A DNA stretch of 64,000 bases, from sequence record SRR31156797_6573, one strand, 5' to 3'. Each line of letters opens with the position of its first letter. Within the stretch, counting starts at the first letter, position 1. A program made the translations under genes and the position numbers. Below, in pieces: positions 1 through 14,211 of the stretch. A model generated the notes under the pieces. That model worked only from the letters and a program-made list of their open reading frames with translations, had not been told where the DNA came from and did not search any database.

Positions 1-2
1 AG

Positions 3-605
3 AATAATCCTGAAGGGGTTATCGTTAACGTCGGCTGTGGGTTAGACGCTAGGTTTGAGCGTATCACTAATAAAATGAAATGGCCTAAAACGGCTGTTTT
101 ATACAATTTTGACCTCCCTGAGGTGATAGCTCTAAGGAAACGGTTGCTAGGTGAAAAGGAATGTACCCGTAATTTAGAAGGCTCACTTTTCGATAATGAC
201 TGGTTGCAAAGTATTCGACAAAATCATGGTGATACGGCGATATTGTTTGTAATCGAAGGGGTGCTCATGTACTTCAATAATGACGATGTTGAAAAAGCGA
301 TCGTACAGATGGTGAACTCTTTTTCAAATTGTCAGATCGCATTTGATAGTTCAAGCAGCTTTATGTGTAAAACGTCAAACCGTCACGATGCTCTAAAACA
401 CACGAATGCAAGGTTTAAACTATGTTTGGACGACCCTAAAGACGTTGAGAATTGGCACCCTGCAATTCGCCTAAAATCAATAAAGCATTACAGTGATTTT
501 GAACGTTGGAGAGATGCAGGCTGGTTTAATTATTGGTCGCTCCGCTTATTACCTATGCTAAAGAATGCTTCATGTTTGCTTCATTTAAAGTCTGGTCGTA
601 ATTGA
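3..605 (+). CDS. Class I SAM-dependent methyltransferase, LCM/TcmP-like (5'-truncated by window edge)
   Basis: Frame is open from base 3 (NNPEGVIVNVGCGLDARFER) into the listed ORF; GCGLD motif I, NFDLPEVI and IEGVLMYF motifs typical of this family. Confidence 0.85.
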   Translation, partial: NNPEGVIVNVGCGLDARFERITNKMKWPKTAVLYNFDLPEVIALRKRLLGEKECTRNLEGSLFDNDWLQSIRQNHGDTAILFVIEGVLMYFNNDDVEKAIVQMVNSFSNCQIAFDSSSSFMCKTSNRHDALKHTNARFKLCLDDPKDVENWHPAIRLKSIKHYSDFERWRDAGWFNYWSLRLLPMLKNASCLLHLKSGRN

Positions 606-931
606 AACTCGTTATTCCAATAGTCGATCGTTGTTTTGAGGCCTGGGATGACAAACAATTGAAACAGATGCTCGAACATTCACAGCGATTGCAGGTTTGG
701 TTAGACGATAATCGAGATAGTTAGTGGGTATGTTTTTAACTCGGCTATATCCAATGATGTGTCAGCTCAGCTTTGGCTGACACGATTCTGCTCCTAAATG
801 TGTTTTGAACACAGTAGACCATCATAAGAATAATTTGTTTAAAGGCTGTTGCCTAAATTCCACTGCCCAATAGCGTTTAAGACAATGTAGAATGAAGCCT
901 TTTTAAAGGTGTTAAATAGGAAGTTTGCTTC

Positions 932-1249
932 ATGCGTAAATCAGATAAGAAGGTCGAGAACCTAATTAGAGAGGTGTTGACCGAAGTTTGTGAAGATACG
1001 TTAAAAGGCTACGATGGTTTTCTTTGGGTGACTCATAGGGTCAAATTCTCTTCTTTTCCACAAAGCTTAGAAATAGTCTGCGTATTTGAAACGAATCAAG
1101 ACAGAGCAATTTTTTTCGCGGGGGAAGGCCGCCAGCACGTCTCAACAACAATCCAAAAGGCGTTTAATAAGGTAGGGGTGCAACTAAAGAACGTAAGTAA
1201 GCAAATCAGTTACGAAACACAGCAAAAGCGTGCGTGCAGTCATCAATGA
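932..1249 (+). CDS. Conserved Vibrio small protein (often auto-annotated 'Fis family transcriptional regulator')
   Basis: MRKSDKKVENLIREVLTEVCE...GFLWVTH N-terminus recalled from Vibrionaceae; no clear Fis HTH visible. Confidence 0.6.
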   Translation: MRKSDKKVENLIREVLTEVCEDTLKGYDGFLWVTHRVKFSSFPQSLEIVCVFETNQDRAIFFAGEGRQHVSTTIQKAFNKVGVQLKNVSKQISYETQQKRACSHQ

Positions 1250-1526
1250 AAGTGAATTAGTGTTGCAGTGAGTATCTAAGACTTTAATCTACGAGTTTTG
1301 ATATAACTACTTTCTTAGTCAAGACGACTAATTCATGCTCACTTAAATCCAAGGCGATGCCTGAGTTTCTTTCACAAACTCATTTTTGCCCCTTTTCTTG
1401 CTAGAACTATCGCCTCCCTTAAACGCACAGGTCATCTTTTTGCTTAATCAATCTAATACCACTAGTATGAAATGAAGTGTCTATCTGTCTGGCAGATCTT
1501 CATTTATTTAACTATATGGAGTCAAT

Positions 1527-2069
1527 ATGAGTGATTGGGATTTTCTACATGATATGCATAATGAGGGGTATAATGCGGCTCAAATAGCAGATGCCGCTGC
1601 TTGTGGATATAACCCGTATGAAGTTGATCTATCAGATTTCGGCTTTTCTCCTGACGAATGGGAAGCGATTGATCACAATAATCAAAATGCTGCTCATATT
1701 GAGGCCCATCCTGAACTTGAAGTGATTTTTGAGAATTTGGTTACTAATGCAGAGTCTTTCTATAAATTGACAAATCGCTACTTACAGATTTGGGGAGAAC
1801 TGGGTGAGCTATTTGCCGAAATAGAATACGGAATAAAGCGGCATAAACCACATACTCAAGGCTCAGACGGCAAGCTTGGCAATGACTTTATTGAGATAAA
1901 AACTATCTCTCCAGAAAAAAATAAAGAACAAGTAAAAGTGAAACGTGCTGGGAATTTTAACAAGCTTTTAATTGTAAAAATATCCGAGGACTTTACTTTT
2001 CAGGGGAAATTGATTGCCCGAAAAGATTTACGGAAAGGCGAAGGAAAGCATGCAAAAGCATCATGGTAA
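1527..2069 (+). CDS. Hypothetical protein with PD-(D/E)xK-like nuclease motifs (DUF6998-like)
   Basis: GELGELFA...GSDG...IEIKT pattern; GGAG RBS upstream. Confidence 0.6.
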   Translation: MSDWDFLHDMHNEGYNAAQIADAAACGYNPYEVDLSDFGFSPDEWEAIDHNNQNAAHIEAHPELEVIFENLVTNAESFYKLTNRYLQIWGELGELFAEIEYGIKRHKPHTQGSDGKLGNDFIEIKTISPEKNKEQVKVKRAGNFNKLLIVKISEDFTFQGKLIARKDLRKGEGKHAKASW

Positions 2070-2291
2070 AGTGACAGTAATCATCAATGGTTAAAATATC
2101 TAACAAACGTAAATAAATCCCAAGCTTGCAAGGTTTTGCCTAGAACTTGTACGGCAGCCCCATTCTTTGTTAGCCACGGGGCAAAGAAGAGCTATGGACT
2201 GAATAGACAACTCTCTCTTAAACTATTTCTCTAGCGTACCTATCTACACTGTATATAACTTACGTTGATTGTGTTTAAGTAAGGCCTTCTA

Positions 2292-3731
2292 CTACTCTTT
2301 GTCCCTTAAGGATATAATCTCCATGATTATGTCAATTACGTTATTAGCATTAAATTTTTCAGTCCCTAATTTTCTGTATAGCTCTTTCATTCTCAACGAC
2401 AAGTCTGTTCTTTTTTGGATCTCAGAGTTTAACTCAGTCCAAAGCTCTTCAGCCATGTAACCTGTGGAGCCAACCGGAAGCAGAAGAAGTCCTTGCTTTT
2501 TTGCTATCTCATATTCTTCACGCATGCCGTTAGATAAAATAATCTCGTTTTCAGCTTGTTTGTTACCGAATAAAAATAAGGCAATGCCCGCATAATTAAT
2601 CATATCTTCTCGATACTTTGTCCATAAAGAGCTTAAAGGTTGTTCTCCTTCTGTGGATTGAGGAAAAGGCCGTAATACAAGATGGTCCTCAATTTTTGCC
2701 AATTTGTTATTAAAGGTTTCCTCAAGCACGCTAGAAATAACAGTACTACCAATTCCAACACCAAATCCAGAAACAATGCGTAAATTATTCTTCACTAGCA
2801 TTTTACTTAGATCATAGACAAACCTTAATGCTTCTTTTTCTTCTAAATCTCCATACTCGCAAGCAGCTCCAGAAATGAATATAGTTCTTGACTTGTATTT
2901 TATTTCTAGTTTTATAAGCAGATCCGTAATTTCTTGGTATTCATCAACAAGAATTGTCTTTATATTGAATCGCTCTAAATCCTTGATGAAAAAATTTTGT
3001 TTTCTTTTCCTGTATTCAAAGTCAGCTTCTTCCTCATTTTTGTCTTTCTTTATGTTTCTAATGAAACAATAATGTCTTCTTTGATTGTTTTCGTAAGCAA
3101 CTCTAACTCGACTAAGAATATAATCCAAGTTTGGATCGGTGAAGCTAAAACCTATGAATATAAATGTTTTAGAAATTAGATCACTTTTAAGATTGGCCAA
3201 ATACTGGTCCATCTTTACATGATAGCGTTCATAGTCATCTTTTGTTAATACAGCTTGGCTTGCATGTTCGACATCACCATGCATCTTATATACAACAGCA
3301 TCACGCTTTGGCTTTGTTGTTGATAAATGATCATTAGTGTGCTTCACATCAGAAACTTTTCCTGACTTTTCAAGCGAATTTTCGATTATTTTATCGTAAT
3401 TGGTTGTCCAGTAAGTTCGTATTGGTAATCGGCATAAAATTCGGTGATTTTCTGTTTCTATTGATTTACGTGAAAACTCATCTATCAGTCTTTGATTTAA
3501 TTGGCTTCTATTGTTAGCGTTATCGTTGCAATGATATTGAGCAAGAGCAACGAGATCATTCTCTTTATCAACATCTAAACCTAGCTCTTCGGCTATAGGA
3601 CGAAGAAGCTCTGCCCAATTAACAAAACCTGAACCAGCTGACATTCCAGCTCCAGCAAAAACTGCGACATTCTCTTCAGCTAGTTCTTTTTCCAAATCTC
3701 TTAGAAATGCCTTTTTCCGTAAGTCCATCAT
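2292..3731 (-). CDS. thsA: Thoeris ThsA effector: SIR2 NADase + SLOG/STALD domain
   Basis: VFAGAGMS, TTNYD, KMHGD, FIGFSFTDPN SIR2 motifs; C-terminal IFISG, IVSGFGVGIG, LRPFPQ, YREDMI, PVGSTG SLOG motifs; closely resembles B. cereus ThsA as recalled. Confidence 0.93.
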   Translation of the reverse strand: MMDLRKKAFLRDLEKELAEENVAVFAGAGMSAGSGFVNWAELLRPIAEELGLDVDKENDLVALAQYHCNDNANNRSQLNQRLIDEFSRKSIETENHRILCRLPIRTYWTTNYDKIIENSLEKSGKVSDVKHTNDHLSTTKPKRDAVVYKMHGDVEHASQAVLTKDDYERYHVKMDQYLANLKSDLISKTFIFIGFSFTDPNLDYILSRVRVAYENNQRRHYCFIRNIKKDKNEEEADFEYRKRKQNFFIKDLERFNIKTILVDEYQEITDLLIKLEIKYKSRTIFISGAACEYGDLEEKEALRFVYDLSKMLVKNNLRIVSGFGVGIGSTVISSVLEETFNNKLAKIEDHLVLRPFPQSTEGEQPLSSLWTKYREDMINYAGIALFLFGNKQAENEIILSNGMREEYEIAKKQGLLLLPVGSTGYMAEELWTELNSEIQKRTDLSLRMKELYRKLGTEKFNANNVIDIIMEIISLRDKE

Positions 3732-3790
3732 AAATATTCCATTTCACATTAATCTTAGAGTAGTTATTTATACAAAATAACAACCAAAAT

Positions 3791-4453
3791 TTAATAAAGC
3801 TCTCCAGTTCCTTGGTCCACTCTTTTATAAAAGTCAGAAAACTGACATGGGTCAGAAATAATAATATTTTTATCACTGTGAAATTTAATATCTATTTCTT
3901 CTATTATATTTTTAGCGGATTTTGATTTATCTAAAGAGATTTTTTTATAGTTTCTAATTCGATTATACCCTATTGATCCTAAATCTACTTCAATTGCCTT
4001 ATCACCGAAATAATAAAAGTGTTCTGAAATCAACACTTGGTTCGCTTTTGTATCACGATATAGATTGGTCATATTAAATGAACCATCAGGATTGCTATGA
4101 TGAGAGTCTTCTTGAACCCATTCACCATTTTTATCTTTATGATATATGTTATCACCTAAGACCTGAACACGACTCCCATTTCTTGCTGGTTTTTTTATAG
4201 AAAACCTATGATCATCCCAATAATCATCAAAGCTCATTTTTTCAGTAACTTTCATTAATAGAATACACTTCTTTTTCGCGTTCTTTAAGTTTGCTCCACC
4301 AACTCCTAATATCCAGTCGCCTATCTTAGCAGTGTTTCTAATGCCTGGTTTACATGTTGCTAAGGTACAAAAACCATGGAATGGGTTAGGGGCGAAACCA
4401 AAATCTCGCGTTATTGCATAAGCATAAAGATTAGATCTAGGTTCAATTAGCAT
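3791..4453 (-). CDS. Nmad2 (nucleotide-modification-associated domain 2) protein
   Basis: YAITRDFGFAPNPFHGFCTLATCKPGIR...GDWILG, GDNIY, VLISEHFYYFG signature. Confidence 0.8.
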   Translation of the reverse strand: MLIEPRSNLYAYAITRDFGFAPNPFHGFCTLATCKPGIRNTAKIGDWILGVGGANLKNAKKKCILLMKVTEKMSFDDYWDDHRFSIKKPARNGSRVQVLGDNIYHKDKNGEWVQEDSHHSNPDGSFNMTNLYRDTKANQVLISEHFYYFGDKAIEVDLGSIGYNRIRNYKKISLDKSKSAKNIIEEIDIKFHSDKNIIISDPCQFSDFYKRVDQGTGELY

Positions 4454-4938
4454 ACAACATTACCCCCTTGTACATTATCACGCTCTGTACCATCGGGTTC
4501 TTGAAAGCTAATTTTTCCTTCTAATGCGTTTATAATAGACTCGCTTCTCCAAGAAACGATAGATGTTGCATATTTTTCGAGGTTTTCTGGTAGTGTTACA
4601 TTTCCTGTTAAGCCATTTTCGTACACACCAATGATAGGTTTTCCAAGTTGATGAGCAGCTTGAATTTCCCAGTTTACCCACGGTCTAGTATGTGTTTCTT
4701 TCCCTATAACAACGATTACCTGACTTGCCCACCTCATTTTCATTCTAAGCAAGCGAGCTATAGTCCTATCACTAACCTTTTTTTCTTCAACACGTCTCTC
4801 GTTTTCAGGTTTCATTCTTACAGAACTATTTCGTAACTGGTAACCTTTTCCTGCTGCTAGACGTGATATTCCATCGACACTAGCATCATCTTTGTGATGA
4901 TGGCTCACAAAAACATTTTTCTTGACTTCTTTAACCAT
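4447..4938 (-). CDS. thsB: TIR-domain protein, ThsB/DUF1863-like
   Basis: VFVSHHHKD, VIVVIGKETHTRPWVNWEI (catalytic Glu), KPIIGV. Confidence 0.87.
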   Translation of the reverse strand: MVKEVKKNVFVSHHHKDDASVDGISRLAAGKGYQLRNSSVRMKPENERRVEEKKVSDRTIARLLRMKMRWASQVIVVIGKETHTRPWVNWEIQAAHQLGKPIIGVYENGLTGNVTLPENLEKYATSIVSWRSESIINALEGKISFQEPDGTERDNVQGGNVVC

Positions 4939-4968
4939 TAGACAACCCTTATTGGTTATTTATATTCA

Positions 4969-5994
4969 TTAAAATAATTTTAAATTATTATCGTGGTAAT
5001 AATATTTTTGCTTTGGTCTCTTATTATTAAACTTAGTTCGACATCTTTTATCGATCTCACATGCACCGCTATTTTCCATGTCCATTAATGTATATGTTCT
5101 TTCTTCTTTAGGTAGGAAGTGAAATATTTCATCCATATCCCATTTTTCTTTATACTCTTCTGATATTTTATTTTGATTTAAAGTAAACCAGAAAAGACAT
5201 TCTTCGCTATTCATTCCGTCTCTGTCGGAAAATATCCAATTTATTCCCCTTTCACATCCTGGACCTGATACGACAAAATTCATCTCTGTAAAAGGAAATT
5301 CATTTATATATGTTAAGTCTACGAAAATTTGGTAGGCGAGAAAATTACCAATTCCTGAAAATGACTTTAGGTGATTAAATACTTCTAGTTGGTTTGCAGA
5401 GATATTTACGCCATTTATTATTTTATCTTGGTTGTAAAACACAAATTTTATCATCCTTAAAATCATGTTTTTTTCAGTTTTACCTTCTATTTCCTCTAGA
5501 AATTTACCAAAGTTAACTTTGGGTCCTCCAAGTATGTAGGCTGCACTGAAAAAAACATAGTTTGGATTTTTTAAATATATATTATTGAGCTGTTCTTTGA
5601 TTGTTTCATTAATGTATTTAATGTTCATTTTTGAAAAATCAAATGGTGCATTGATTTCTCTTAAAGTATCACTTTTGTTTATAACTCGAAATAAAAATGA
5701 GTTAAGTATTTTGTTATCATAGCTTACTGAATGGTTGTTGATGATATTTTTTAACAACCATTTCGTTTCTCTATCCCAAGTTCTTTTTGTATTTACAAAT
5801 TTGTAATTCTTCAATATTTCATCATCTGTCCAATAAGGAGGAAGACAAAGTATTTCTTTTTTGTAATAGATTGATGTTCTCTCCCTTTGATGATAAAACC
5901 ATTCTCGAATAACACTATCATTTAAAACTGGTTTAGAGTTTTTTATCTTCCCTTCTCTTACATTACAAAAGAGCTGATCATTTTTAATATCCAC
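4969..5994 (-). CDS. 5-hmdU DNA kinase-like helical protein (aGPT-Pplase1 family)
   Basis: ERTSIYYKK...PPYWTDDEILKNYKFVNTKRTWDRET, LFRVINK, HhH-like GIGNFLAYQIFVDL, VVSGPGCERGI, MENSGACEIDK. Confidence 0.75.
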   Translation of the reverse strand: MDIKNDQLFCNVREGKIKNSKPVLNDSVIREWFYHQRERTSIYYKKEILCLPPYWTDDEILKNYKFVNTKRTWDRETKWLLKNIINNHSVSYDNKILNSFLFRVINKSDTLREINAPFDFSKMNIKYINETIKEQLNNIYLKNPNYVFFSAAYILGGPKVNFGKFLEEIEGKTEKNMILRMIKFVFYNQDKIINGVNISANQLEVFNHLKSFSGIGNFLAYQIFVDLTYINEFPFTEMNFVVSGPGCERGINWIFSDRDGMNSEECLFWFTLNQNKISEEYKEKWDMDEIFHFLPKEERTYTLMDMENSGACEIDKRCRTKFNNKRPKQKYYYHDNNLKLF

Positions 5995-6541
5995 TAGAGA
6001 ACACCTCTTCTATGAAGGTTTTAAAATCCCCCATTCCATCTTCATTATTTATAAACTGATAGTCCGATTTTGATTTATTCAAATTTATATATTTGTCAAT
6101 TTCATACTTTTCATAGTTATTGTTACTTCTTTCTATGTAAATCACTATGAATCCATTATTCTTACACCATATAAACTCTTCGTTAGATCTTATATCAGTA
6201 ATGATTACATTTTGATTTTCTTTGTTACTTTCCTCTAAGTTAATTAATTCATCTGATAGCATTCTGATGAATATTCTATCTTCTATTTCTCTGAGTTTAT
6301 TCAGATGTAGCCAAATGTCTCTTGGGGTGTGTTTGATTGACTCACCAGTGGACAATGTAATGTTTATTGGCAACGTTTTTTCTTCGGGGAAATAGTCCTT
6401 TTCCATCCATGGGTAAATGTGATTTGCTAGTTTTTTCAATTGATCACTGAAAGATAATCTAATGAAGTTATGTTCACCTATTAAATATCTAGCTAGAAAA
6501 TCTTTACCACTTCCGGACACACCCATGAATGCAATTTTCAT
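5984..6541 (-). CDS. P-loop deoxynucleoside monophosphate kinase-like protein (T4 gp1-like)
   Basis: IAFMGVSGSGKDF Walker A, LSFSDQLK, VIITDIRSNEE. Confidence 0.8.
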   Translation of the reverse strand: MKIAFMGVSGSGKDFLARYLIGEHNFIRLSFSDQLKKLANHIYPWMEKDYFPEEKTLPINITLSTGESIKHTPRDIWLHLNKLREIEDRIFIRMLSDELINLEESNKENQNVIITDIRSNEEFIWCKNNGFIVIYIERSNNNYEKYEIDKYINLNKSKSDYQFINNEDGMGDFKTFIEEVFSSGY

Positions 6542-7620
6542 ATATTTTCCTTATTGGTTTTATTGAAGTAATTTGAACTTATACTGAGATTAAAGTCATC
6601 ACTGAACTCATTTTTTATAACAATGGGTTGATTGAATTTTTCTTGATGTATATATGATAGAACTGCTTCTGCGTATCCCCAAAGCAAGTTTTTTTCTTTC
6701 TCTACGCAATATTTGTCAAAAAGACCTTCTAAAATATTAACTTTTTCCGGCATCCTTTCTTTATTATAGTTTTCGGTAATCAGAGTATTAAAAAACTCAA
6801 CTATATCAATGAATAATGATTTTATTTTAGGTAGTGAGTTGGGGAATTTTATTTCGTCATTGTTTAGTATCTTGGTTAGTTGATCTCCCTTGTTATTATA
6901 TATTTCTTTGGCTTGTTCTATTCTTTTTTTATATATATGTAGATTTGTTACTGATTGATGTAAATATCCAACTTCAATTTCACTATCTACTTCGTTTTGC
7001 AAAACTGATACTACTATTTCTTGAAGTAAACTAAATTCAAAAATATTAATGTTACTTATACCAAATATAAGATCTCCACTTCTTTGTATGATTTTTATAT
7101 TTAATTTTTTGTCCGGAGTAACGAAGAAATGTATTAAGTTATTGCAAGGAATATCTACGCTGTTTTGTAAGTTATATACATTCTTTAGACTTTCGTCTGT
7201 GTCTCTGTCAGGCATGTATAAACTAAGGACGGCTCGTCGTGTGAAAATGCCATCTTTTTTGAATTGATTTATGACATTCTCTAGTTGCCCATGAGCATAT
7301 AGCCTTTCTCCATAGGCTGCTCGCCAAACTACTCCGTCATCTGAATATTTAGGTGCTCTAGGGAGAAAAAACTTTAGATATGGTTCAATTCGGTTATCAC
7401 CAGCGAGAACCCACATAGCTTCAGCAAAAGTGGAAAAGATATTGTTTTTCCTGCCCAATAGACTTAGATGCCTTGATCTTGGATTATGTAAGATCAAGCT
7501 AGCATCATAGATGGTTAAAGCATCTCCGTTCCTCGTTGATAGGCAGGTACCTTCAGTTAGCACCTTTTCTAGGATTTTCATTATTACATCGTTAATAGTG
7601 TCTCCATAAACGATATGCAT
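6538..7620 (-). CDS. Thymidylate synthase-fold enzyme, probable dUMP hydroxymethylase
   Basis: AYGERL, TRRAV, DIPCNN (catalytic Cys), QRSGDLIFGISNINIFEF, NLHIY; start placed at ATG 7620 (GAGG RBS) although the frame is open to 7743. Confidence 0.82.
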   Translation of the reverse strand: MHIVYGDTINDVIMKILEKVLTEGTCLSTRNGDALTIYDASLILHNPRSRHLSLLGRKNNIFSTFAEAMWVLAGDNRIEPYLKFFLPRAPKYSDDGVVWRAAYGERLYAHGQLENVINQFKKDGIFTRRAVLSLYMPDRDTDESLKNVYNLQNSVDIPCNNLIHFFVTPDKKLNIKIIQRSGDLIFGISNINIFEFSLLQEIVVSVLQNEVDSEIEVGYLHQSVTNLHIYKKRIEQAKEIYNNKGDQLTKILNNDEIKFPNSLPKIKSLFIDIVEFFNTLITENYNKERMPEKVNILEGLFDKYCVEKEKNLLWGYAEAVLSYIHQEKFNQPIVIKNEFSDDFNLSISSNYFNKTNKENI

Positions 7621-8401
7621 AACCGGAACCTCATGCTTATAAGTTGGCATTATTAGATGATAAACTGCTTCAATAGTCTCCGTCGCATGACAATCTGGAT
7701 TAAAGGGGGCACAAATGGCTGGTGTATAAAATGTAACAGCCATTAAGGATCTCTAAGTCATACGATGTTTCCAGCTTATAATCTACTATTATCATATTGT
7801 GCGTTTTGTTAGGAGTGAAGTGATGAATTGCATATTTGTCTACGAGTTATCACAGAAATGCGATGGTATTACTCGGATTGCTCGGCAACGATATAACAGT
7901 TATCAAGACTTAGTGATTATTTATCAAATTACTGCTTTAGTTTTACATTTGACTATTGATACCAGTGTCGGCATTTTTAATAGAGGATAATGGCAAGGCC
8001 TGAGACGTATAGATACTTTTTATGGGAGTTTACCCTACGAGTTAGGCTTATCGGCTTCATTTGTTCAGACATATTTATTTTATCCGTAATTGTCGAGTTT
8101 AATATTTCATTCTCACACCTCCTATCCATCAACATATCAGATTGACTCTGAACACCTAACGCGAATTTGCCTCTTTTCGTGCTGGCAAAAGCAAACCATA
8201 TCGATCTCGTTAGAGTTCTAGTGCTTAAGACATAGCCCATTTTTCGTTTTTCTCGCTCCCACCGTTGATCGTTTTTCGTGATACCTTTATTTGGCGTTCG
8301 CCAGAAGCAGACAAAAACAAAATGGTGTATTTAATTAACCCATATTGGGTTCTAATAAATTGTTATCGAACATGCAGTTTTGTGCTCATCATGGAGGTGA
8401 T

Positions 8402-9004
8402 ATGGCATTATTTAACGAAAGTAATATTAGGGACCGTGCCAAATAAGAGCAACAACGAGCGGCAAATATATATAAGTCAAACAGTAAGATTCTTTCTGAA
8501 TCTTCTTCTGTTTTTAATAAATATAAAATGTATGATGTTTTCTTGTCTCACAGCTAAAGAGACGCTGAGTTAATACTTGGTGTTAAAGCTACACTGGAAG
8601 ATATAGGTTACTCTGTTTATGCCGACTGGGTAGAAGATGATCAATTTGATCGAAGTAATGTCAATGAGACTACAGCTGAATTACTCAGAGAGAGAATGGA
8701 TGCATCTAAGTCATTATTTTATGTCACAACTGAAAATGCGGAAGCTTCAAAGTGGATGCCTTGGGAGTGCGGTTACTTTGACGGTATAAAAGAGAAAATA
8801 GCTATATTGCCTATTACAAAATACTCATATGATAATGATTATAAAGGGCAAGAATACTTAGGTTTGTACCCGTACTACCTAAAGGCAAATGACACAGCAC
8901 AGAAACCGCGCTTGTGGATTCATAAAGATAAAGATCACTATCTCGTATATGAAGCGTGGTTGAAAACTTCGCGCAAAGAGCTTATGTGGAGAAAGGATGG
9001 ATGA
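8402..9004 (+). pseudogene. TIR-domain gene interrupted by two in-frame TAA codons
   Basis: GGAGGT RBS then ATG 8402; reads MALFNESNIRDRAK*...YDVFLSHS*RDAELILGVKATLEDIGYSVYADW...SKWMPWECGY; TAA at 8444-8446 and 8555-8557; same frame as ORF 8696-9004. Confidence 0.85.
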
Positions 9005-9405
9005 TAGAGCAAAAAATTGCGCATTTAACTTTTATACAGGGGGTCATTAATAGAATGGGGCAAAACTCCTTCTTGCTTAAAGGTTGGAGCGTAACCGTTG
9101 TCGCAGCTTTATTTGCGCTAGCTGCTAAAGATTCAAATAAAATGTTTGCTCTGATAGCATATTTTCCTGCATTTATGTTTTGGTTCATAGATTCCTTTTT
9201 CCTGTATCAAGAAAAGCTTTATCGAAAGCTTTACGAAAAAGTTGCTGAAGACAGTATAAAAAGTGATAGATATACTCTGAGTACGCAACCGCTGAAGACG
9301 GAAGTAGATAGCTATACCGCAGTAGTATTTTCTAAAACATTGTTGCCCTTTCATGGTTGTATTATAGGTGTATTACTAATCGCTATGTTTGGCATATTAA
9401 GTTAG
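9001..9405 (+). CDS. Small multi-TM membrane protein of a family often found next to TIR genes (putative effector)
   Basis: HLTFIQGVINRMGQNSFLLKGWSVT...FWFIDSFFLYQEKLYRKLY; ATGA overlap with the TIR stop; AAGGA RBS. Confidence 0.72.
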   Translation: MIEQKIAHLTFIQGVINRMGQNSFLLKGWSVTVVAALFALAAKDSNKMFALIAYFPAFMFWFIDSFFLYQEKLYRKLYEKVAEDSIKSDRYTLSTQPLKTEVDSYTAVVFSKTLLPFHGCIIGVLLIAMFGILS

Positions 9406-9570
9406 TTCGCATAACAAATATGGGGCCTTTCTGGTTAACAAGCAATAGCTTTGCTGTGTTAGCTACCAATGCTCTCGAACAGCAAAGTCATCTACTTTGT
9501 TTTCCCCAAACTCAACTTATCGGAAATGGGCGATAACGACGACAGTTGCCAACTCACTTCTGTCCACTTT

Positions 9571-9600
9571 CGTTTCAGCCAGCTCTGGCTGAAACGTTTT
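9571..9600 (+). terminator. Perfect inverted repeat plus T4, possible terminator
   Basis: CGTTTCAGCCAG-CT-CTGGCTGAAACG-TTTT. Confidence 0.4.
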
Positions 9601-9855
9601 GCCCCAAAATCGTTTAGCAACTGCTTCTTGACTACTTTTTCTTGCCATTTCTTGACCTAGTTTATCTAATAGCAGACTATGCCCCTAGTTGTGTATTTGG
9701 GATTTACAGACATGCTTTGCCATTTGTTCGGATTGAATAAGCCTGTGAGAGCAATGTGTGACAAGGTCTGTGTCTGCATTTCCTAAAAATATTTTAAAGA
9801 CAATGTCTGCTGAAAAGACACTGTTAGCTTTTAATTGGAGTCAACGCTGATACAT

Positions 9856-10842
9856 ATGAATCTACATGACCGAATACTTGAATTAAAACAAGAACACAGC
9901 GGATATGGGCACAATGGAATTTTATTTTCATTTTCGCTCGAAATGTGCAAAAAAATTGATGCTGCATCGGCGAGTGACTCTTTTGCTGAGAAAACAATTA
10001 GAGAGATATTGAAGCTACTTAAGGGGTATAATGTTGGGTATTCAGAAAAGTTGAAATCCGCATTTGAAGTTTATTCTGAGTTCGCAATATTTCATGAGAT
10101 CATGTCGAAAGGTATTCCTATAAAGAGAGTTCCAGAGGAAAAAGAAGCACGGCCTGATTTTAAAGTGTCAATCGATGGTGAAGACCTCTACCTAGAAGCT
10201 AAGGTGCTTGGCTGGGCTTCGGGCGGTATTCAGCACAATGCGGCTATTAATGACGGTATCGACGCGCAAATATCAATTGAAGAGCAATTAAGTGAGGGTA
10301 AAACTGTCGCTTTTGGTGAATCTGAAATTAGTCCGCTCGGGACCACTAAAGAATCAATTGAACATCCAGAGAAGTACTTTATCGAAGCTATTTCTGCAAA
10401 ATTAAACCAGAATGTAAAGCCAGCTCAGCTGAAGTTAGGCCCTACACTGCTGATTTGTGATCTGACATCCCTAAACCATCCATCAGACCACAGAAAATCA
10501 AGCGTTATCGTTCACAACGACAACATGTATGACAGTTTTTCTTCTGGTGAGCTGTGGCATATCGCATTTGGCGAATATGGCGATAGAATACTGAAGGCTA
10601 TAGAGTTCGAGGGGAAGTCGAATATCAGTGGAAAGCTCCAAAGAAATGGGGTTCTAGTCGAGCATGAAGAACTGATAGGTGTAATATTTAGAGTTTCGAA
10701 GCTTTCGGGGGAATGCTCATATTCTTGTCTTATAAAATCAGAGCACTTTGACAAATATGGTAGCTTGGTAACTCAGCTGAGTGACTTCTGGAATGATGAT
10801 GAAAACTCTAATGCTTGGGAACTTTTAAGTAATGAAAGCTAA
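9856..10842 (+). CDS. Cassette-encoded hypothetical protein with PD-(D/E)xK-like motif
   Basis: RPDF...YLEAK; stop codon lies inside the attC R'' box; alternative TTG start at 9835. Confidence 0.65.
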   Translation: MNLHDRILELKQEHSGYGHNGILFSFSLEMCKKIDAASASDSFAEKTIREILKLLKGYNVGYSEKLKSAFEVYSEFAIFHEIMSKGIPIKRVPEEKEARPDFKVSIDGEDLYLEAKVLGWASGGIQHNAAINDGIDAQISIEEQLSEGKTVAFGESEISPLGTTKESIEHPEKYFIEAISAKLNQNVKPAQLKLGPTLLICDLTSLNHPSDHRKSSVIVHNDNMYDSFSSGELWHIAFGEYGDRILKAIEFEGKSNISGKLQRNGVLVEHEELIGVIFRVSKLSGECSYSCLIKSEHFDKYGSLVTQLSDFWNDDENSNAWELLSNES

Positions 10843-10908
10843 CAAGGCGCTGCAGTCGGACAATTTTTCTGCGGCGCTTCAAAATTGCCGCTGAGCGCGG
10901 CGTTAGGC
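10837..10908 (+). repeat. attC recombination site (72 bp, intact)
   Basis: AGCTAAC-5bp-GCTGCAG...CGGACAATTTT/AAAATTGCCG...CTGAGC-5bp-GTTAGGC, imperfect palindrome with unpaired extra bases. Confidence 0.9.
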
Positions 10909-10928
10909 CCTTATCAGGATATTTACAC

Positions 10929-11522
10929 ATGGATTATTTAACCTTCATCAGCAAATTAATTGACTCGTTGTCGTGGCCAATTGTTACATTGGTTCTAGGT
11001 TTTGCGCTGCGAGTTAAATTAGGTGATTTACTACCTTCTCTGAAAAAAGTTAAAGCGGGTCCAGTTGAAGCTGAATTCAGCATTGAAGCGAGAAAAATAT
11101 ACGACAAATCGCAAAATCTATTAGCAGAGAAGCAAATAGATTCTGAAGGGGATGCTAGAGATACAAAAATTGCGCTCGCAAAAATTCATTCTGCCAGAAA
11201 GGATCCGGTCAAAATGGTGCTTGAGGCGTGGAAAAGTGTTGATGGAGCTCTATTTCGGCTTGGAAAAGATGCTGGAATTTTAATTGACCCGATGGATAGC
11301 TCTAGGAATGTTTACGAGAGAGTTATATCGAATAATTTATTAAAGCCACAAACTAAAGAATTGGTTATTGAAATATATGAAATGAAAAATCGAGTTTCTA
11401 TTGCAAATGTAAAACCTTCTTTAGACTCGGCGAAAGATTATTTAATTGCTGTCGAACAAGTTGTAAATCTTCTAGAAGAAGAGAGGAAAACAGTGGAAAA
11501 AGTTGGTAATGTGACTTGGTAA
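10929..11522 (+). CDS. Cassette-encoded hypothetical protein, N-terminal TM helix and helical C-terminal domain
   Basis: SLSWPIVTLVLGFAL...KAGPVEAEF N-terminal module; AGGA RBS. Confidence 0.7.
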   Translation: MDYLTFISKLIDSLSWPIVTLVLGFALRVKLGDLLPSLKKVKAGPVEAEFSIEARKIYDKSQNLLAEKQIDSEGDARDTKIALAKIHSARKDPVKMVLEAWKSVDGALFRLGKDAGILIDPMDSSRNVYERVISNNLLKPQTKELVIEIYEMKNRVSIANVKPSLDSAKDYLIAVEQVVNLLEEERKTVEKVGNVTW

Positions 11523-11525
11523 TTG

Positions 11526-11632
11526 GCCTAACAAGAAAATCAATGAATGCTTAACGCTTGTTGTAATGAGTTTTAGGTTGCACGGTATTTGTAGTGGCTG
11601 AGTGAATTTGGCCACTGAATTAGAGGTTGTGC
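11526..11632 (+). repeat. Degenerate long (VCR-like) attC site
   Basis: GCCTAACAAGAAAATCAA...GCCACTGAATTAGAGGTTGTGC; R'' matches cassette start, interior poorly paired. Confidence 0.5.
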
Positions 11633-11744
11633 AATACCTGAGATAATCCTTTAAATGCTAATTTAGCAAAATCACTGACTCATTTATGTCCAAAAGTGTT
11701 TCAGCCATTAGTAAAAGGCTTCCTGCTTCACTCATCATTCAAAT

Positions 11745-11771
11745 AAAAAGGCCAGCACCGAAGTGCTGGCC
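11745..11771 (-). terminator. Rho-independent terminator of CoA-disulfide reductase gene
   Basis: GGCCAGCAC-CGAA-GTGCTGGCC with A-tract on the + strand. Confidence 0.8.
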
Positions 11772-11800
11772 AATATCTAGCTAATAGAATATCTCTTGTA

Positions 11801-13498
11801 TTACGCTTTCGCAAACAGGTAAGTACGGTAACCACCAAGTAGGTTACGTGCTTTATAGCCGTTGTTTACTAGTTGACGGTATGCCACGTTTCCGCGTAGA
11901 CCAACTTGACAGTAAATGATGATCTCTTTGTCTTTTGGTAGCTCATCCATACGTTGACGCAACTGGTCAACTGGGATGTTAACCGCACCCGAGAGGAAGC
12001 CATTTTGTAGCTCACCCGGGTTACGTACATCAAGCAAGATTTGATCGTCAGTTAAGCTGTCTAGCTCATCAAAGTGAATCGCTTTGGTATCGCCTTTGAT
12101 AAGGTTGTTCGCAACAAACGCCGCTTGGTTGATGACATCTTTCGCACTGCCGTATGGTGGCGCGTAAGTTAGCTCTAAATGCTCAAGTTGATCAACAGTC
12201 ATACCTGCACGTTGAGCCACTGCCATTACGTCAATACGCTTGTCGATACCATCTTTACCTACGGCTTGTGCGCCGAAGATTTTACCGGTTTTAGGATCGA
12301 ACAGCATTTTAAACGAAACGACTTCAGCGCCAGGGTAGTAGCTAGCATGACTTGCTGTGTGGACATAAACCTTTTGGTATTCAACACCGTCACGTTTCAG
12401 TTGTTTCTCGTTCTTACCGGTTGATGCAACCGCTAAATCGAAAATCTTACAAATCGCCGTACCTTGCGTACCACGGTAAGTTTCTTTACGGCCAAGCATG
12501 TTGTCTGCTGCCATACGACCTTGACGGTTTGCAGGACCAGCCAGAGGAACCATCGTTTGCTGACCCGTCACGAAGTCTTTCTCTTCGATAGCATCGCCTA
12601 CTGCATAGATGGATGGATCGCTGGTTTGCATGTATTCGTTAGTGTAGATACCGCCTAGCTCACCAATTTGCAGGCCAGCTTCTGAAGCTAGTTTGGTTTC
12701 AGGGCGAACACCGATAGCCATGATTAGGATATCCGTTGTTAGTGTGTCACCATCGCTTAGAGTAAGTTCAAGCTCACCATTAATGTGTTGGTGCTCTGAT
12801 TGGCCTGAATCCATGCTTGCAAGTGCCGTTGTTGGCTTGAATTCAACCGATTGAAGAGCAGTGCTTAAACGCAAATCGATGCCTTTAGCTCGAATTTCTG
12901 CATGAGCAAAACCAGCCATTTCACGGTCAACGGGCGTCATTACCTGATCAGCCATTTCCAGCAATGTGGTTTTAATACCTAACTGGTGGAAGGCTTCCAT
13001 CATTTCCAAACCGATAAAACCACCACCCACAACCGTTGCGTGATCCACTTGGTTGGTATTAATGGTTTGGATAATCTTATCCATGTCTGGAATATTACGC
13101 AGTGAATGCGTTAATGGATTATCTAGACCTGGGATTGGCGGCACAACTGGGCCCGCACCAGGGCTTAACAATAGAAAATCATAGCTTTCTGTGTATTCAC
13201 TTTGGTCAAGAAGGTTACGAACTGTGATGGTTTTTTCTTCACGGTTGATGGTCAGAACTTCGTTCATCACGCGAACATCAACGTTAAAACGCGCTAGGAA
13301 ACTTTCAGGTGTTTGCAGTAGTAGATTACCGCGTTCCTTAATGTCTCCGCCGATGTGATATGGCAGTCCGCAGTTAGCAAATGAAACGAAAGGCCCGCGT
13401 TCAAACATAATAATTTGTGCATCTTCGCTTAAACGACGAGCACGAGCCGCAGCAGAAGCGCCACCTGCAACACCACCAATGATCACGATCTTAGTCAT
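11801..13498 (-). CDS. CoA-disulfide/persulfide reductase with C-terminal rhodanese domain (CoADR-RHD/Npsr-like)
   Basis: GGVAGG FAD motif, SFANCGLPY, VVGGGFIGLE, YAPPY, rhodanese YCQVGLRG. Confidence 0.92.
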   Translation of the reverse strand: MTKIVIIGGVAGGASAAARARRLSEDAQIIMFERGPFVSFANCGLPYHIGGDIKERGNLLLQTPESFLARFNVDVRVMNEVLTINREEKTITVRNLLDQSEYTESYDFLLLSPGAGPVVPPIPGLDNPLTHSLRNIPDMDKIIQTINTNQVDHATVVGGGFIGLEMMEAFHQLGIKTTLLEMADQVMTPVDREMAGFAHAEIRAKGIDLRLSTALQSVEFKPTTALASMDSGQSEHQHINGELELTLSDGDTLTTDILIMAIGVRPETKLASEAGLQIGELGGIYTNEYMQTSDPSIYAVGDAIEEKDFVTGQQTMVPLAGPANRQGRMAADNMLGRKETYRGTQGTAICKIFDLAVASTGKNEKQLKRDGVEYQKVYVHTASHASYYPGAEVVSFKMLFDPKTGKIFGAQAVGKDGIDKRIDVMAVAQRAGMTVDQLEHLELTYAPPYGSAKDVINQAAFVANNLIKGDTKAIHFDELDSLTDDQILLDVRNPGELQNGFLSGAVNIPVDQLRQRMDELPKDKEIIIYCQVGLRGNVAYRQLVNNGYKARNLLGGYRTYLFAKA

Positions 13499-13522
13499 AA
13501 TTTACTCCAAGTTTTGTTTCAA

Positions 13523-13563
13523 CTCGCAAAGCTATCAATGTTGATTGATAGCTTTATGGCGAG
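13523..13563. repeat. Intergenic inverted repeat / hairpin
   Basis: AAAGCTATCAAT-GTTG-ATTGATAGCTTT with flanking CTCGC/GCGAG. Confidence 0.55.
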
Positions 13564-13566
13564 CGA

Positions 13567-13752
13567 TTAACGTAAGCCTAATTTTTTCAGAAAATAAACT
13601 GCTGGACATATCCCTGTGAAGGCACTTTGAATCAGGTTGGCACCAACAAATACCGTCAACCAAACAAAGTTAGGGTGGACGAAAGCAGTCAAAATTACTG
13701 AGATCAGTATCATACTGCCAGCCAATACTCTTACACCGTTTTCAATAGTCAT
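13567..13752 (-). CDS. DUF2892 / YgaP-like membrane protein
   Basis: MTIENGVRVLAG...NLIQSAFTGICP; GGAGG RBS before ATG 13752. Confidence 0.85.
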   Translation of the reverse strand: MTIENGVRVLAGSMILISVILTAFVHPNFVWLTVFVGANLIQSAFTGICPAVYFLKKLGLR

Positions 13753-13797
13753 TGTTTTACCCTCCGTTGGATTAATGACCTCACTATAGAACCTTAA

Positions 13798-13882
13798 ATT
13801 AGAAAAGTCTAATGTTAAATTATCTAATTTTAAACTTACTAAATAAGCGTTGACTAATTTAGTTTTATTAGTAGAATCTAAT
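13798..13882. promoter_or_regulatory. Three ATTAG-N6-CTAAT palindromes, probable ArsR-family operators
   Basis: 13798-13813, 13843-13858 (one mismatch), 13867-13882 in the divergent promoter region. Confidence 0.6.
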
Positions 13883-13908
13883 TTATACATTCACAAGAGG
13901 ATTAGACG

Positions 13909-14211
13909 ATGGAAGCTGTCGACATTAATACGATGAAAAAAAATGCAGCAGAAGTCTCTGAACTTCTGAGAATTATGGCGCACCCTGAGCGTCTAATGGT
14001 TTTGTGCCAGCTTACTCAAGGTGAAGTAGGCGTAGGTATGTTACAGCAAGGCTCTTCGCTGAGTCAGTCTGCGTTTTCTCAACACTTAACGGTGCTTCGG
14101 AAACACGGGATCATTCAAGCCCGTAAAGAATCGCAACAAGTGTTTTATTCGCTTGCAGACACGCGCGTAACTCAATTGATTCAAAGCTTACAAACAACGT
14201 TTTGTGGCTAA
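13909..14211 (+). CDS. ArsR/SmtB family regulator (BigR/YgaV/SqrR-like)
   Basis: AHPERLMVLCQL, SQSAFSQHL, C-terminal FC (two Cys). Confidence 0.9.
   Translation: MEAVDINTMKKNAAEVSELLRIMAHPERLMVLCQLTQGEVGVGMLQQGSSLSQSAFSQHLTVLRKHGIIQARKESQQVFYSLADTRVTQLIQSLQTTFCG

Follow-up and report, generated by a model that had tools for sequence, protein, structure and literature searches.

A conserved six-gene operon that places the Thoeris effector ThsA directly behind a five-gene TIR–Nmad2 module

Why should the effector gene of a Thoeris system stand directly behind genes that resemble the first steps of a thymine-modification pathway, and do these genes act together? The question is raised by positions 2292–7743 of sequence record SRR31156797_6573, a stretch of 64,000 nucleotides that we analyzed as a whole and refer to as the window. 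Here, genes for a thymidylate synthase (TS)-like enzyme, a deoxynucleoside monophosphate (dNMP) kinase, an HMUDK_hel protein, a TIR protein and Nmad2 are followed by thsA. Judged from their sequences, the six genes are a real, conserved operon whose arrangement goes beyond chance. The novel element is the ThsA gene in line directly behind Nmad2; the five-gene part is of an already known kind. With respect to function, we see about an even chance that the six genes constitute one mobile anti-phage operon, in which the enzymes would feed a TIR–Nmad2 sensor whose output is ThsA, a canonical type I Thoeris effector appended to the five-gene module.

Six open reading frames (ORFs), all on the minus strand, fill the interval as the first-pass annotation described, and their order of transcription is TS, dNMP kinase, HMUDK_hel, TIR, Nmad2 and thsA. 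The TS-fold protein (401 amino acids, 6538–7743; PF00303, 6.8e-18) has its likely start at an in-frame ATG, position 7650, rather than at 7743, since the match to E. coli sets in around 7640 and indels at 7705–7721 in one of the sequencing runs discussed below have lengths that are not multiples of three. Its gene overlaps that of the P-loop kinase, a T4 DNMK-type enzyme for (deoxy)nucleoside monophosphates (185 amino acids, 5984–6541; PF21448, 1.9e-08) by 4 nucleotides in an ATGA, and the kinase gene in turn overlaps the HMUDK_hel gene by 11 nucleotides (341 amino acids, 4969–5994; PF18723 over residues 28–324, 1.3e-52). A gap of 30 nucleotides precedes the gene for the ThsB-type TIR protein (163 amino acids, 4447–4938; PF08937, 4.6e-20), which overlaps that for Nmad2 by 7 nucleotides (220 amino acids, 3791–4453; PF18753, 1.4e-65). 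Behind a 59-nucleotide spacer (3732–3790), within which neither a promoter-like nor a terminator-like site was reported, lies thsA (479 amino acids, SIR2_2 plus STALD, 2292–3731). PADLOC models matched both Thoeris components of the operon (ThsA1, 2.4e-205; ThsB, PDLC00418, 2e-69). The catalytic motifs are intact, namely DIPC of the TS-like enzyme (Cys200), the Walker A stretch GSGKD, NWEI of the TIR protein (Glu91) and TTNYD of ThsA (Asn111), and the block is AT-rich, with a GC content of 0.28–0.36 inside and 0.37–0.46 in the flanks. A promoter-like site (TTCACT-17-TATGAT, score 9/12), which is a consensus match only, is located upstream at 7819–7791.

The whole block recurs elsewhere. Seventeen sequencing runs from 11 studies contain all or part of the stretch, one of them probably its source, and in each of the 16 non-source runs the share of sampled words is 0.29–0.38, approximately the value that arithmetic predicts for 96–97% identity across the whole stretch. 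We aligned four of the non-source runs, from four studies, to the window in detail. In all four, a single contig extends from 2254, 2259 or 2288 to 7876 at ~96% identity, with 202–234 differences, and thus covers the six genes together with the region upstream of them (7744–7876). All four carry an extra T behind position 3741 in the spacer. Within thsA, 27 of the 37 listed single-base differences fall at third codon positions and 29 of the 37 are synonymous, and because of the latter we read thsA as being kept by purifying selection inside the six-gene block. At their ends, the contigs pass into sequence that is a diverged form of the flanks in the window, so that they document co-inheritance of the six genes and not a new insertion site; a different insertion site in the other runs, which the loose ends might have signaled, was rejected on this ground. 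Evidence of transcription from an RNA library was likewise rejected, as the library consists of contigs, and a single one that spans the six genes is no proof of a transcript. We treat the six genes as one unit because of their shared strand, their overlaps, the spacer that lacks a terminator-like site, the recurrence of all six and the selection on thsA. That the modification-type genes, the TIR gene and thsA belong together, as first proposed, is borne out by the block in these four runs, and such genes also occur with TIR and thsA at two more distant loci (L111 and L021) that are described below.

Several of the domains encoded here and in the related loci have been noticed before: a 2015 survey of nucleotide-centric TIR/SLOG conflict systems by Burroughs et al. 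(NAR 43:10633) is reported to have included STALD, SLOG clusters 2 and 3, MazG_C, Nmad2 and HMUDK_hel among its families. The DefensePredictor paper (DeWeirdt et al., Science 2026, PMC13092281) cites that survey for its prediction of a defense role for such domains. It reports 42 validated anti-phage units, and one of these comprises a thymidylate synthase, a dNMP kinase, a 5-hydroxymethyl-deoxyuridine (5-hmdU) kinase family protein and NMAD, for which the accessible text gives no mechanism. The first five genes of the window operon match this unit by domain content and lie together as a putative transcription unit. The window differs in adding ThsA behind Nmad2, and the published text, as far as available, names no TIR. 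The first-pass description of the locus as a candidate new system must accordingly be narrowed, because its five-gene part corresponds in its domains to the protective E. coli unit of PMC13092281, and ThsA is one of several alternative partners. Our literature search found no paper on the mechanism of a TS/kinase/HMUDK_hel/TIR/Nmad2 system, and the accessible portion of the TIR survey of Yirmiya et al. 2025 makes no mention of Nmad2, thymidylate, kinase or MazG.

Among 5426 complete E. coli genomes, 16 carry the five-gene module in the window order, with a nucleotide identity of 77%. In E. coli NZ_CM194533.1 (L081, 1–17845), it resides on a conjugative element (VirB11, MobC, ArdC) between IS3- and IS30-family elements, and it is followed by a restriction endonuclease gene, then by a split SLOG2 and TIR_2 pair and further TIR genes. 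The closest relatives, in Buttiauxella, Citrobacter, Xenorhabdus and Serratia, have Nmad2 proteins 74–78% identical to that of the window and keep TS, kinase, HMUDK_hel, TIR and Nmad2 in the window order. Downstream of the module, most of them carry genes for SLOG3 and a 386-amino-acid TIR protein in convergent orientation.

On a broader scale, we found more than 7000 Nmad2 proteins. Using Nmad2 as the probe, we compared the loci of the best 80 of 104 relatives from species genomes and the best 80 of 199 from metagenomes, which were annotated with the six window proteins and with hidden Markov models (HMMs) of recurrent neighbor clusters named by the Pfam matches of their representatives. Across these 160 related loci, the TIR–Nmad2 pair is the constant core, while the uracil-nucleotide enzymes and the effectors vary. 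Nmad2 is immediately preceded by a TIR gene in 52 of 80 genome loci; among the metagenome loci, 63 extend upstream by 600 nucleotides or more, and 61 of these show the same pairing. Thirty-six genome loci are well flanked, with at least 4 kb on each side, and enzyme genes are present in 31 of these: HMUDK_hel in 27, MazG_C in 20, TS in 11, a dCTP-deaminase-like gene in seven and a UDG-like gene in two. Effector-type genes are found in 32 of the 36 and together with an enzyme gene in 28; a SLOG-domain gene of any kind is present in 20 (TIR-SLOG2 in 11, SLOG3 in eight, ThsA in three) and a weakly patatin-like gene in 15. The effectors beside TIR–Nmad2 across the relatives are TIR-SLOG2, TIR plus SLOG3, patatin-like or ThsA.

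True ThsA, 46–56% identical to that of the window, occurs near TIR–Nmad2 in four other settings. One is a single lineage (L002 and L085–087), and another is L027. At L021, genes for ThsA, TIR, MazG_C, HMUDK_hel, TIR and Nmad2 are all co-directional, and on a distant metagenome contig (L111), in which Nmad2 is 49% identical, HMUDK_hel, TIR, Nmad2 and ThsA follow one another in the window order. The SIR2 genes of L076 and L146 were rejected as ThsA at 24–26% identity. Natural fusions join Nmad2 to SLOG2, TIR, MazG_C, HMUDK_hel plus TIR, UDG or Nmad3, but they are rare, amounting to 14 such long proteins from a collection of 5.8 billion sequences. Nmad2 is carried by 17 plasmids; it is present in 0 of 50,697 phage records, and a scan of a viral collection of 2.9 million contigs yielded one locus. 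The family is cellular, not viral. In one Dehalococcoidia locus, three Nmad2 paralogues stand in tandem.

What might the enzymes of the window make? The TS-like protein has the CMP 5-hydroxymethylase MilA as its best solved relative (2.2e-14, versus 2.2e-08 for the best ThyA), reaches 58 bits against ThyA equivalog models with a cut-off of 325 and matches phrog_3676 at 2.4e-82. The nucleophile Cys200 and the uracil-type Asn233, which stands where MilA has Asp, are each kept in 27/27 homologues. It is probably a C5 hydroxymethylase of a uracil nucleotide. The kinase matches the dNMP kinases of phrog_139 (1.6e-31), and its Walker A stretch SGSGKD is present in 10/10 homologues. We considered whether the kinase and the HMUDK_hel protein are the split halves of a 5-hmdU kinase, as fused proteins with an N-terminal Tmk-like P-loop domain followed by HMUDK_hel do exist (L023, L029, L046). 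This idea was set aside and kept as a possibility only, since beyond its P-loop the window kinase is unlike the Tmk-like part and matches T4-type dNMP kinases.

The third gene had been labeled a 5-hmdU DNA kinase, and this label is doubtful, as the protein consists of the helical domain alone and its model is of the HhH-glycosylase type. A Pfam scan at E ≤ 0.01 detected no kinase domain in it. In the AlphaFold2 model (predicted local distance difference test, pLDDT, 85.9), the top 23 structural matches are all HhH-GPD enzymes, led by the queuine salvage enzyme QNG1 (Z 9.6) and including the 5-phosphomethyl-deoxyuridine (5-PmdU) glycinyltransferase of phage PaMx11 (Z 8.4), followed by Mag1, AlkA, EndoIII, OGG and MutY. 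Despite the middling Z scores, we adopt the HhH-glycosylase-type assignment because the matches cohere in one family. Neither single-sequence nor profile searches link the protein to a solved structure at the sequence level. It also carries an HhH-like SGIGNFLAYQ..D stretch and an adjacent pair, Cys312-Glu313, that is invariant in the alignment. The HMUDK_hel protein is thus modeled as an all-helical HhH-glycosylase-type fold with a Cys-Glu pair, and not as a kinase.

Homologues of this protein, 31–32% identical, are found in 398 phage records, and the window enzymes bear comparison with thymidine hypermodification in phages (ViI, M6, PaMx11, SP10 and PhiW-14; Lee et al. 2018, 2021), which shares with the window a TS-fold enzyme and HMUDK_hel. 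The HhH-glycosylase-type model is, at the level of fold only, like the 5-PmdU glycinyltransferase PaMx11 gp46 (Z 8.4). According to Lee et al. 2021, clade 2 aGPT-Pplases require a conserved Cys and a neighboring Glu, and the adjacent Cys-Glu of the window protein resembles this essential pair. In those enzymes, the same text reports, the Cys/Glu attack C6 of 5-phosphomethyl-deoxyuridine to yield an exocyclic methylene that is captured by nucleophiles including thiols. The window system differs from the phage pathways in being cellular, with a setting of immune signaling rather than genome protection, and its kinase is by family match a T4-type dNMP kinase. The aGPT-Pplase2, PLP-decarboxylase, radical-SAM and FAD enzyme families have no Pfam match at E ≤ 0.01 among the six ORFs. 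In the Ackermannviridae phage CAU_YEP3 of Yersinia (L163, 3054–5230), an HMUDK_hel homologue annotated as "aGPT-Pplase clade 1" adjoins an NTP pyrophosphohydrolase, a pairing that echoes that of MazG and HMUDK_hel in bacteria.

The next two proteins appear to form a pair. The TIR protein aligns to BcThsB (6lhy), its Glu91 corresponding to the Glu of the BcThsB WVRYEI stretch, and both this catalytic residue and the C-terminal Cys163 are invariant in 30/30 sequences. In the Nmad2 model (AlphaFold2, pLDDT 95.2), the top 21 structure matches (VIA) are YTH, EVE and ASCH domains, with Z up to 7.7, and Foldseek matches the same families weakly. YTH, EVE and ASCH domains bind modified bases. Nmad2 is thus modeled as a PUA-like protein (YTH/EVE/ASCH-type) with a fold of the modified-base-reader type. 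We assign it a putative reader role because of these matches and because the genes of distant Nmad2 homologues that lack a TIR show translational coupling to those of GmrSD and Mrr, both type IV restriction enzymes. Such TIR-less genes are found with GmrSD and Nmad3, Mrr or a reverse transcriptase (L073, 4815–8493; L077, 3593–5157; L080, 5427–7645; L075, 6998–8891). Complex prediction supports, though it cannot prove, binding of TIR to Nmad2, with a score of 0.86 in three runs versus 0.02 for the best control, where the mark applied is reached by 51/78 solved complexes and 2/108 mismatched pairs. The three runs share at least 81% of their contacts, and the partner has a pLDDT of at least 88. 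The predicted interface comprises the TIR tail (residues 152–163) and many invariant Nmad2 residues, and the model sets the invariant C-terminal cysteine of TIR against conserved residues of Nmad2.

ThsA consists of an N-terminal SIR2_2 domain (PF13289, 1.9e-29) and a C-terminal STALD domain (PF18185, 1.3e-73) and matches BcThsA (6lhx) at 3.9e-171. Its N111 and H151 align to the catalytic N112 and H152 of BcThsA. The preprint of Manik et al. 2022 lists G289, S290, L326, Q359, R371, K388, G399 and E403 as the BcThsA contacts to 3′ cyclic ADP-ribose (3′cADPR). The corresponding window residues are G, A, V, Q, R, K, G and E, so that six of eight are identical and the other two, S290 to Ala and L326 to Val, are conservative replacements. 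By this alignment, ThsA probably keeps a pocket of the 3′cADPR type. Similar to type I Thoeris, the window operon thus combines a SIR2-SLOG ThsA with catalytic Asn and His and a ThsB-family TIR protein with its Glu. It differs in that this TIR subfamily is locked to Nmad2 and carries a C-terminal tail whose last residue is an invariant Cys, that Nmad2 sits between thsB and thsA, that three genes for nucleotide enzymes precede them and that most members of the TIR subfamily have no nearby ThsA. The Kongming system reportedly has a SIR2 effector that is triggered by a modified deoxynucleotide, and its likeness to the window goes no further than the outline, in which enzymes that convert nucleotides are placed upstream of a SIR2 NADase. 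KomC is a weak SIR2 match to the window ThsA (4.4e-15). In contrast to Kongming, the sensor of the window ThsA is a SLOG domain with a putative pocket of the cADPR type, and the window contains no counterpart of KomA or KomB.

These features suggest a route from enzymes to effector. The TS-like enzyme and the kinase would convert dUMP to a nucleotide of 5-hydroxymethyl-dU; its further processing would fall to the HhH-fold Cys-Glu protein, which may act on the free nucleotide or once it is in replicating DNA. Nmad2, as a TIR-bound domain of the modified-base-reader type, would recognize the modified-dU product; the TIR protein would then make 3′cADPR from NAD+, and ThsA, upon binding 3′cADPR, would destroy NAD+ and abort the infection. 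In relatives, TIR-SLOG2, TIR plus SLOG3 or patatin-like genes would take the place of ThsA. Of the three models that the first-pass annotation offered, which included a decoy guarded by the TIR, the one in which modified dU is read by Nmad2/TIR to fire ThsA fits best, given the Nmad2 fold, the predicted TIR binding and the coupling to GmrSD and Mrr. The proposal that a modified pyrimidine nucleotide is itself the ligand of ThsA is disfavored by the pocket, with its six kept contacts and two conservative replacements; a modified nucleotide may be the ligand of Nmad2. A more specific version, a host-made alarm, strikes us as a long shot. The TS-like enzyme and kinase would make 5-(phospho)hydroxymethyl-dU, from which the HhH Cys-Glu protein would generate a reactive C5-methylene; the Nmad2 pocket would capture this species, possibly covalently on the C-terminal Cys of TIR, and thereby license 3′cADPR synthesis and the firing of ThsA.

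A number of observations weigh against the reading of the six genes as one operon with ThsA as its output. The closest relatives have no in-line ThsA, and none stands behind Nmad2 at L001, L003 and L004 or in the 16 E. coli copies. Citrobacter-type loci have ThsA 3–4 kb away, on the opposite strand and with TIR genes of its own, and true ThsA is near just three of the 36 well-flanked genome loci. According to PMC13092281, a unit of this domain content is sufficient to protect E. coli MG1655, which suggests that the module can defend without ThsA. At the level of single proteins, Ala replaces the diphosphate-contacting S290 of BcThsA; the fold matches are middling (Nmad2 Z 7.7; HMUDK_hel Z 9.6, with the caution due to helical proteins), and both models are without a Foldseek match at E ≤ 0.001. 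Finally, we infer three steps of the chemistry, namely the choice between a free-nucleotide and a DNA substrate, the product of the TIR protein and, from sequence, the hydroxymethylase rather than synthase activity of the TS-like enzyme.

The first set of these points leads to the rival that deserves most attention, which we nevertheless regard as unlikely: two independent systems share a defense island, the five-gene module acts alone through effector chemistry of its own, and ThsA is a Thoeris remnant that is inactive or uses the module TIR incidentally. Defense genes generally cluster, and a PDC-M50-like TIR system lies next door in the same island; modules without ThsA exist in Buttiauxella, Xenorhabdus, Serratia and the 16 of 5426 E. 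coli genomes, and, according to PMC13092281, a unit of identical domain content is protective on its own in E. coli. However, thsA has the same orientation, follows Nmad2 after 59 nucleotides and accompanies the module in four other runs under purifying selection, and we found no other intact TIR in the 64-kb window; the sole other TIR-like ORF in an HMM search is interrupted by a stop. SLOG-type effector genes, moreover, accompany TIR–Nmad2 in 20/36 and 10/12 well-flanked loci, often in the same gene array, and an Nmad2-SLOG2 fusion exists.

The two remaining rivals assign the enzymes a different purpose. In one, which we consider very unlikely, the operon marks host DNA as self with a hypermodified thymine, and TIR/ThsA act on unmodified or wrongly modified invaders in the manner of restriction-modification. 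The HhH motif and glycosylase-like fold of HMUDK_hel and the reader-type fold of Nmad2 would suit such a role, as would the 398 phage records with HMUDK_hel homologues, which belong mostly to Ackermannviridae and other thymidine-hypermodification clades (assigned in part after Lee et al. 2021). Yet the operon lacks a nuclease, the families of the later phage pathway are unmatched in its six ORFs and Nmad2 is nearly absent from the phage and viral collections. A whole-genome mark is also awkward for a module that moves on mobile DNA into naive hosts and that, according to PMC13092281, protects E. coli from a plasmid. The other rival is sabotage of the nucleotide pool, to which we give similarly little credence: the TS-like enzyme and kinase channel dUMP into a 5-substituted dU nucleotide that is toxic or of no use, and phage DNA synthesis is thereby starved or poisoned, with TIR–Nmad2 and ThsA as regulators or a second layer. 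Nucleotide-depleting and chain-terminating defenses provide precedents, and all the alternative enzyme sets of the family (TS, MazG plus MazG_C, dCTP-deaminase-like and UDG-like) act on uracil or cytosine deoxynucleotides; the five genes would also be enough for some protection, judging by the unit of PMC13092281 that shares their domain set. Left unexplained by sabotage, however, are the invariance of the TIR–Nmad2 core while the enzymes vary, the retention of the TIR catalytic Glu in 30/30 sequences and the frequent recruitment of SLOG sensors.

The surroundings of the block contain further defense-related and repeated elements. Divergently upstream, at 8528–9405 on the plus strand, is a second TIR system, whose ThsB1-like TIR gene (PADLOC PDLC00437, 9e-31) begins with an ATG at 8528 and has an in-frame TAA at 8555–8557 (codon 10), which makes it a pseudogene or reflects a sequencing error; a PDC-M50A-like gene at ~9001–9405 (3.5e-48) overlaps it. 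On the other side, an attC-like inverted repeat (ATCTAAC ... GTTAGCC, ~70 nucleotides) lies at 2096–2168 on the plus strand, just after an ORF at 1527–2069. An integron cassette array was rejected, since neither a tRNA nor a family of attC-like repeats, direct or inverted, was found in positions 1–14000, where this short repeat stands alone, and a prophage origin was rejected because the flanking ORFs have no phage Pfam matches. Three short stretches (875–1209, 9461–9501 and 11619–11696) are at least 90% identical to many unrelated contigs from elsewhere among the runs, flanked by loose ends to either side, and resemble small repeated elements or junctions of mosaic regions. The Vibrio small RNA V_AS7 (Rfam, 135 bits) matches at 13308–13476 on the plus strand, antisense to the 5′ part of a pyridine nucleotide-disulfide oxidoreductase-rhodanese gene (11801–13498), which suggests that the window belongs to a Vibrio genome.

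The reading of the six genes as one operon makes a clear prediction, that the module TIR protein is a 3′cADPR synthase under the control of Nmad2 and a self-made modified dU nucleotide. An in-line ThsA, an effector of a kind specific for the ligand 3′cADPR, provides a handle on the mechanism of an unsolved five-gene defense, and purified ThsA would serve as a reporter for the upstream steps. If the alarm-molecule version holds, modification of a pyrimidine base would be linked directly to TIR immune signaling. For the family as a whole, the reading would unify a modular set of systems in which nucleotide-modifying enzymes act through a reader–TIR pair on an exchangeable effector.

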